Shown: piece by piece, positions 39,637 to 40,206 of the stretch
How positions within the stretch are numbered: position 1 is the first letter of the stretch
How the letters are laid out: each line of letters begins with the position of its first letter
Sequence record: PP925840.1
Source of the DNA: Escherichia phage SholemSchwarzbard
DNA length: 64,000 nucleotides
Reading direction: 5' to 3' (one strand)
Notes under the pieces: model-generated
What the model was told of the DNA's origin: nothing
The model's database searches: none
What the model saw: only the letters and a program-made list of their open reading frames with translations
Made by a program: the position numbers and the translations under genes

Positions 39637-39870
39637 TTATTTTTTACGAAAAATTGATTTATATTTATCAGCCCATTTCTCAATGACTTTTGCCGGGCCA
39701 TAGATAACAAAGTAATCGCCAAACTCTTCACCACCGAGTTGACCGAAATTATCTAATGCATCACGAAGAACTCCATGAGGCATTTCACCCATTTTATCTT
39801 TCTTGCCAGTGTAAATAAACTCAACTTTTACATCAGCAGTTTCAGCAATAAATTCTTGATACGTTTTCAT
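39637..39870 (-). CDS. head internal protein with capsid-targeting sequence (IPI-locus)
   Basis: ORF 39637..39888 trimmed to the ATG at 39870, giving 77 aa starting MKTYQEFIAE; SD GGAG upstream. Confidence 0.65.
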   Translation of the reverse strand: MKTYQEFIAETADVKVEFIYTGKKDKMGEMPHGVLRDALDNFGQLGGEEFGDYFVIYGPAKVIEKWADKYKSIFRKK

Positions 39871-39948
39871 TTTATTCTCCAATTTCACATTTGTTTTGAT
39901 AGGGTAATAGTATCACTACTAAAACCCCGTGTAAACAACTTTGTGAAA

Positions 39949-40206
39949 TTATTTTAAATCTTCTAATCGTTTCTTCATCTTAGAACCATTTTTAGCGATT
40001 TCTCCTGCGTCAGAGCATAATGCTAAAAGTGCTTTAACTTTAGTTTGGTCTCCTTTAAAAGATGAAGGATCGACTGCAGCAGCAAGTTCTTTAATACGAG
40101 AGAAAAGACGCTCAGCTTCAGCTAAAGCCATTCCAAGCTTTACTTCCATACCATGAGAAGATTCAGTGATAGTAGTTTCTGTAGCAAATTCTTTGAAAGT
40201 TTTCAT
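39949..40206 (-). CDS. internal-protein-like protein with targeting-type N-terminus
   Basis: 85 aa starting MKTFKEFATE; helical, Ala/Lys-rich. Confidence 0.55.
   Translation of the reverse strand: MKTFKEFATETTITESSHGMEVKLGMALAEAERLFSRIKELAAAVDPSSFKGDQTKVKALLALCSDAGEIAKNGSKMKKRLEDLK

Follow-up and report, generated by a model that had tools for sequence, protein, structure and literature searches.

The window analysed here, a stretch of 64,000 nucleotides from Escherichia phage SholemSchwarzbard (PP925840.1), carries two small open reading frames on the minus strand between 57B, the gene for Acb1, and trna.4. The initial annotation had placed two small genes at the ipI position beside 57B; we confirm both ORFs, and the slot that they occupy matches that of T4. 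The first, ip5 (39949..40206, minus strand), encodes a precursor of 85 aa that starts MKTFKEFATETTITESSHG, and the second, ip6 (39637..39870, minus strand), encodes a precursor of 77 aa that starts MKTYQEFIAETADVKV. Since the ORFs are present and purifying selection could be measured, with dN/dS values of 0.03-0.06 for ip5 and 0.24-0.26 for ip6 in comparison with T6 and GiZh, we conclude that both are real genes. In the program-made list of ORFs, ip6 starts with a GTG at 39888; the ATG at 39870 is preceded by GGAGAATAAA and is the start chosen in most public records. Some records, such as that of vB_EcoM_112 (83 aa), use the upstream GTG, by which the stretch 39871-39888 (minus strand) adds MKLENK to the protein. 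As the added residues would bury the targeting leader, we believe that the upstream start is probably a mis-annotation.

The order of genes on the minus strand is gene 1 (dNMP kinase, 40976-41689), 57A (40734-40976), 57B (40279..40734), ip5, ip6, trna.4 (39393..39578), trna.3, trna.2 and the tRNA cluster. 57B (Pfam PF23474, 2.6e-60) forms the conserved upstream edge of the slot, and the homologue of trna.4 (61 aa; phrog_1692, 6e-35), whose position is common to T4, T6 and GiZh, forms the conserved downstream edge. T4 has the identical gene frame, but its slot holds a single gene, ipI. The product of 57B is an anti-CBASS phosphodiesterase, and many phage records still label the gene 'RNA ligase' or 'hypothetical protein'; it adjoins the internal-protein slot, and known and candidate anti-defence genes therefore stand side by side. 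Further along, the tRNA cluster comprises ten genes, including His, Asn and Tyr, compared with eight in T4. An ORF of GIY-YIG type (177 aa, 37846-38379, minus strand, with HFYLYKITNKINNKIYIGVHS) is inserted in the cluster between tRNA-Ser and tRNA-Gly; at this site T4 and T6 carry the 221-aa homing endonuclease SegB.

The two genes are almost certainly ip5 and ip6, which belong to the internal proteins of T-even phages. Their products match phrog_3499 'internal head protein' (1.1e-49) and phrog_8111 'internal virion protein' (1e-50), respectively. In a collection of 5.8 billion proteins, relatives of the first are called 'Ip5 internal head protein' (T2) and 'Ip5' (RB70, Q38378) by their sources, a name also borne by a near-identical relative from wV7, and relatives of the second are called 'Ip6 putative internal head protein' (VR20), with homologues called Ip6 in VR25 and VR7 as well. 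Ip5 is 96-99% identical to the Ip5 proteins of T2 and RB70; Ip6 is 88-95% identical to its counterparts in VR20 and vB_EcoM_112, and 80.6% identical to T6 Ip6 over the mature body (83% over the full protein). The best match of the Ip6 model in BFVD is 'Ip6 ... VR7', with a TM of 0.97. In GiZh the genes go under the labels ipV and ipVI, and the annotation adds 'similar to RB15 T6 T2 RB70 Ip5 ... replaces ipI'. Pfam and NCBIfam contain no family for Ip5 or Ip6, and a profile search of PDB sequences returned noise only (E-values of 0.06 or worse).

The pair is not new, as both genes already have names, ip5 and ip6, in phages of the T2/T6/RB70 type. T6 and GiZh have the same pair in the same slot and order and with the same flanking repeats, and the pair is found in several hundred Tequatrovirus records. 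By megablast, the 1.5-kb region matched 610 phage records, with a coverage of at least 80% in 246, T6 and GiZh among them. When the mature bodies were compared with 50,697 phage records by tblastn, Ip5 was found in 494 (231 at no less than 99% identity, and 226 at approximately 54%, the latter being of the RB69 ORF127c type) and Ip6 in 230 (37 at 95-99%, 144 at 80-90% and 49 at 60-80%). The ip5 and ip6 internal head protein genes were reportedly named in T2/T6-type phages by Repoila, Tetart, Bouet and Krisch in EMBO J in 1994, who are also said to have described the leaders, the polymorphic locus and the flanking repeats. The genes, leaders, locus and repeats are all already known, and the genes bear their names in public records. 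The possibility that both proteins are homologous to a characterised internal protein is borne out in part: they match the already described Ip5 and Ip6, but these have been named and not functionally characterised. More generally, T-even phages have two polymorphic internal-protein loci, at least ten different internal-protein genes have been reported, and an N-terminal signal that directs packaging is common to all internal proteins (PMC12373910, PMC9026906, PMC3012670).

Both proteins begin with a leader of the capsid-targeting type, as had been claimed from the sequence. A search of the six-frame translation of the window for MK[TS][YFW][QKE][ED][FLIY] found four copies of the motif, compared with none in 300 shuffles. 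Two copies lie at the very start of Ip5 (MKTFKEF) and Ip6 (MKTYQEF), both of the M-K-T-Y/F-Q/K-E-F leader type, and copies 3 and 4 lie in the second internal-protein locus (30322-31129). The leader MKTFKEFATE had been singled out as divergent; it is instead of the same type as the leader of T4 IPI, which starts MKTFKEFTSTTTPVSTITE followed by ATLT after the cut, that is, with a leader of the type MKTFKEF...ITE. Given that T4 IPI itself starts MKTFKEF, the putative targeting leader of Ip5 (codons 1-15, MKTFKEFATETTITE; 40162..40206, minus strand) can be classed as IPI-type, and that of Ip6 (codons 1-10, MKTYQEFIAE; 39841..39870, minus strand) as IPII/IPIII-type. In the alignment to T4 IPI that had been recommended, made by BLASTP, the match of Ip5 is limited to the leader, where ITE falls on ITE (ITE15 versus ITE19), but the mature bodies have no similarity; beyond the leaders we detected none among Ip5, Ip6 and IPI, and the mature bodies are not homologous to T4 IPI*.

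Work on IPIII mutants has shown that ten residues are needed for targeting, positions 4 and 7 serving mainly targeting and positions 8 and 10 processing (PMC9026906). In both Ip5 and Ip6, position 4 is aromatic and position 7 is F, and the leader ends in a gp21-type L/I-x-E, which is IAE10 in Ip6 and ITE15 in Ip5, the latter invariant across homologues. For Ip6, the predicted gp21 site lies between IAE10 and T11. For Ip5, since residues 8-10 (ATE; ATK in T2) break the L/I-x-E rule, and since M1, T3, F7 and I13-T14-E15-SSHG are invariant among homologues whereas residues 8-12 are variable, or deleted in one lineage, we infer that cleavage would occur after ITE15, before S16, and not after ATE10; residue 10 is E here and K in T2 and T6. 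The predicted mature Ip5 has 70 aa (7.5 kDa, pI 9.2) and the predicted mature Ip6 67 aa (7.7 kDa, pI 7.9), with ten lysines each; for comparison, IPI* has 76 aa and a pI of 9.0. Genes for the head maturation protease and for scaffold proteins are present in T6, whose ip5-ip6 pair is the same. The gp21 gene lies outside the 64-kb window here, and the 95-98% DNA identity to Tequatroviruses suggests that this phage, too, has a gp21 protease and a scaffolding core. We looked in the searchable literature for virion proteomics and for data on the injection of Ip5 or Ip6 and found none; from the leaders and their predicted cleavage sites we consider it likely that both proteins are packaged and processed.

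Three copies of a repeat element of 41-76 nt (families D1/D2) lie on the minus strand before ip5, ip6 and trna.4. Element 1 (40207..40285), upstream of ip5, contains an early-promoter-like TTTACA-17-TACTAT (40265..40237), a hairpin (40227-40256) over the -10 hexamer and then a ribosome-binding site. Element 2 (39871..39955), upstream of ip6, has TTTACA-17-TACTAT (39935..39907), a partly degenerate hairpin and the ribosome-binding site GGAG, and element 3 (39579..39645), upstream of trna.4, has a weaker promoter-like site and a hairpin at 39598-39625. A promoter scan found a T4-early-type promoter with a TG extension (extended -10) in elements 1 and 2, and the hairpin loop of each element holds the -10 hexamer. 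The predicted RNA folds of elements 1, 2 and 3 have energies of -20.5 kcal/mol (z-score -5.4), -25.9 kcal/mol (-5.3) and -16.4 kcal/mol (-3.2), respectively. Between elements 1 and 3, the changes in the stem are paired (GATGAGG/CCTCATC versus GATAGGG/CCCTATC), which argues that pairing has been maintained. Within the window, the hairpin core is found at the three sites of this locus only, and element 1 is almost the same as the element that precedes T4 ipI. We considered whether the hairpins might be terminators and rejected this reading because they have no U-tract; a terminator scan found none in the region. We likewise rejected the 24-mer AATAATTTCACAAAGTTGTTTACA of elements 1 and 2 as a repeat specific to internal-protein loci, as an exact third copy lies at 8113-8136 (minus strand), downstream of an nrdC-like ORF (8217-8525). 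Because this copy recurs behind the nrdC-like gene, the 5' half of the repeat is the general T4 early-promoter upstream/-35 consensus. A late-promoter motif is present on the same strand upstream of ip5 and ip6 (41332-41339).

The slot between 57B and trna.4, in which ip5 and ip6 are flanked by the repeated early-promoter/inverted-repeat element, is one of the two polymorphic internal-protein loci of Tequatrovirus and a well-known swap-prone site. Our survey covered 40 loci, namely 36 IMG/VR loci anchored on 57B together with those of T4, T6, GiZh and the window. Across these loci the slot holds between zero and three leader-bearing genes, drawn from 16 body families and arranged in 18 architectures; the ip5-ip6 architecture occurs in five, and the commonest occupant is the Ip6 family, when its distant forms of 68-78 aa are counted in. 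In T2, ip5 is followed by a different gene of 102 aa, which is probably of Ip7 type, given the clustering in the survey and a 102-aa 'Ip7 protein' entry in BFVD. Alignment of the window, T6 and T4 revealed that the T4 element before trna.4 has a 5' half of the 'before ip6' type and a 3' half of the 'before trna.4' type. Since this element is chimeric, the ip6 cassette is gained or lost by recombination within the shared core.

The second internal-protein locus of the window (30322-31129, minus strand) lies directly downstream of lysozyme e and holds two leader-bearing genes. One encodes 105 aa (30812-31129, minus strand; MKTYQEFIAES..., phrog_3966 'unknown function') and the other 157 aa (30322-30795, minus strand; MKTYQEFITEA..., phrog_3155 'internal virion protein'). 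As the sizes of these genes presumably differ from those of T4 IPIII and IPII, this locus probably also holds alternative cassettes.

Exchange may have reached into ip6 itself. The window has the less common ip6 allele, represented by 37 of the 230 matching records at 95-99% identity. It differs from T6 ip6 by 13 non-synonymous and 6 synonymous codon changes that all fall in codons 46-70, a part of the protein predicted to form strands 3-4 and helix 2; codons 1-45 show 2 synonymous changes only, and the protein encoded by them is identical. The dS of ip6 is 3-5 times that of the neighbouring genes. Codons 46-70 look like an exchanged segment, that is, an intragenic mosaic, and such a segment fits better than local positive selection because the synonymous changes cluster there too. 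Positive selection on ip6 was considered and is not supported, given an overall dN/dS of 0.24-0.26 and the clustering of synonymous changes with replacements. It is possible that residues 46-70 of Ip6 form a specificity surface.

The AlphaFold (AF2) model of Ip6 is a confident beta-alpha-beta-beta-alpha-beta sandwich (pLDDT 86.9), and that of Ip5 consists of two long antiparallel helices predicted with moderate confidence (pLDDT 69.7); in a Foldseek comparison with viral structures, the Ip5 model had no match at an E-value of 0.001 or better. A profile search with Ip6 against 1.84 billion representatives returned five proteins in total, all of them phage internal-protein relatives, and therefore no remote homologue that would give Ip6 a function. 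The two predicted folds, which resemble small binding modules, suggest no biochemical activity. In more distant T4-like phages (L030/L031, 3453-3689; L005, L010, L021 and L023), the same slot holds leader-bearing proteins of 68-78 aa that share the motif G-P-x-x-x-I-[DE]-x-W with Ip6. These distant forms are tied to Ip6 by BLAST, by a profile search (E 6e-4) and by Foldseek (prob 1.0), and some of the internal-protein diversity therefore reflects ancient divergence of a single fold and not unrelated genes.

Based on these observations, we propose that ip5 and ip6 encode packaged, injected and cassette-swapped anti-defence internal proteins, and we regard this model as a whole as likely. Each cassette would be self-contained: an element with early promoter and hairpin, followed by a ribosome-binding site, would precede a conserved leader that is joined to a small, unrelated body. 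Each gene would be transcribed from its own early promoter and, late in infection, probably also by read-through from upstream. The leader would dock the precursor on the scaffolding core of the assembling prohead, where the gp21 head-maturation protease would cut it off, behind IAE10 (Ip6) or ITE15 (Ip5), to leave mildly basic proteins of approximately 7.5-7.7 kDa free in the head. At infection, Ip5 and Ip6 would exit with the DNA. We believe that each then probably inactivates, by binding to it, a single specific enzyme of host defence that would attack the entering glucosyl-hmC DNA, the most likely target being a type IV (GmrSD-family) nuclease variant outside those assayed so far. Between phages, the cassettes would be exchanged, gained or lost by homologous recombination in the shared promoter, hairpin and leader sequences.

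The suggestion that both proteins are candidate injected effectors is upheld by their membership of the T-even internal protein class, whose members are viewed in the literature as injected candidate anti-defence effectors. Ip1, Ip2 and Ip3 block a different GmrSD enzyme each and give no cross-protection (PMC12373910). The anti-defence step of our model rests on analogy, since Ip1-Ip3 block GmrSD enzymes and the neighbouring 57B is Acb1, and we lean slightly towards such a role for Ip5 and Ip6. Expression in restriction-proficient hosts had been recommended, and this experiment has largely been published: ip4-10 did not reproducibly inhibit any of the common enterobacterial GmrSD variants assayed. 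Furthermore, GmrSD-ECOR17 and GmrSD-ECOR21 restrict T2 and T6 (PMC12373910) even though both phages carry ip5 and T6 carries ip6 as well. Given these two results, the targets of Ip5 and Ip6 lie elsewhere, either among GmrSD variants outside those assayed or in another kind of defence. A GmrSD-type target specifically can be proposed tentatively; the diversity of these enzymes is very large, and about 15 groups have been sampled (PMC12373910). It may be, although we would not count on it, that Ip5 and/or Ip6 are injected inhibitors of a defence beyond the GmrSD variants assayed, perhaps of another immunity class that acts in the first seconds of infection, and if this were true, residues 46-70 of Ip6 would be the specificity-determining surface. 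Finding the targets would give a wider map of an active phage-host arms race and better prediction of host range for T4-like therapeutic phages.

Three other readings have to be weighed against this model. We think it rather unlikely that Ip5 and/or Ip6 are packaged and injected to act on a target that is not of GmrSD type, either another defence that acts early (for instance a further modification-dependent nuclease, an abortive-infection sensor or a nucleotide-signalling system) or a host housekeeping function. The negative results for ip4-10 against common GmrSD variants fit this reading, as do the apparently unrelated folds of the Ip5 and Ip6 models and the presence next door of an anti-CBASS enzyme, from which it follows that the region is not devoted to restriction only; however, every internal protein whose target is known, three in all, inhibits a GmrSD enzyme, and about 15 groups were sampled from this very diverse family. 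It is less probable still that the two proteins are bulk contents of the head, serving in the neutralisation of DNA charge or in the physics of packaging and ejection and having no specific host target. The predicted mature forms are indeed lysine-rich and mildly basic, and lysines of T4 internal proteins touch DNA phosphates (PMC3012670), but their net charge is just +1 to +3, and a bulk role would explain neither the swapping of 16 unrelated body families in one slot, nor the near-invariance of the Ip5 body (at least 99% identity in 231 records), nor the restriction of divergence to one half of Ip6. That one or both proteins escape packaging, the leader being kept as a homology arm for recombination and the protein acting in the cytoplasm after de novo early expression, is very improbable, for although each gene has its own early-type promoter and its first codons lie within the repeated recombination substrate, targeting positions 4 and 7 and the cleavable I-x-E are kept in both proteins and their homologues, and all sixteen bodies retain the motif.

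Packaged and injected anti-defence proteins, as we propose Ip5 and Ip6 to be, have counterparts in T4. T4 IPI (Ip1) is injected and inhibits a type IV restriction enzyme, the GmrSD of E. coli CT596. The pair shares with ipI the slot and a nearly identical upstream promoter/hairpin element, and Ip5 resembles IPI in leader type and in the size and charge of its mature form; the mature bodies of Ip5 and Ip6, in contrast, have no homology to IPI*. T4 IPII and IPIII (Ip2 and Ip3) inhibit GmrSD-ECOR21 and GmrSD-ECOR17. Their type of ten-residue leader, MKTYQEFIAE, is also that of Ip6, which belongs to the same class of small injected proteins, whereas ipII and ipIII are located at the other internal-protein locus, beside lysozyme e, and the bodies are unrelated. 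The closest counterparts are the Ip5 and Ip6 of T2, T6, RB70 and the VR-series phages, which are the same proteins, in the same slot and order and between the same flanking repeats. The window differs from T6 in carrying the less common ip6 allele, distinguished by codons 46-70, and from both T2 and T6 in having E10 in place of K10 in Ip5.
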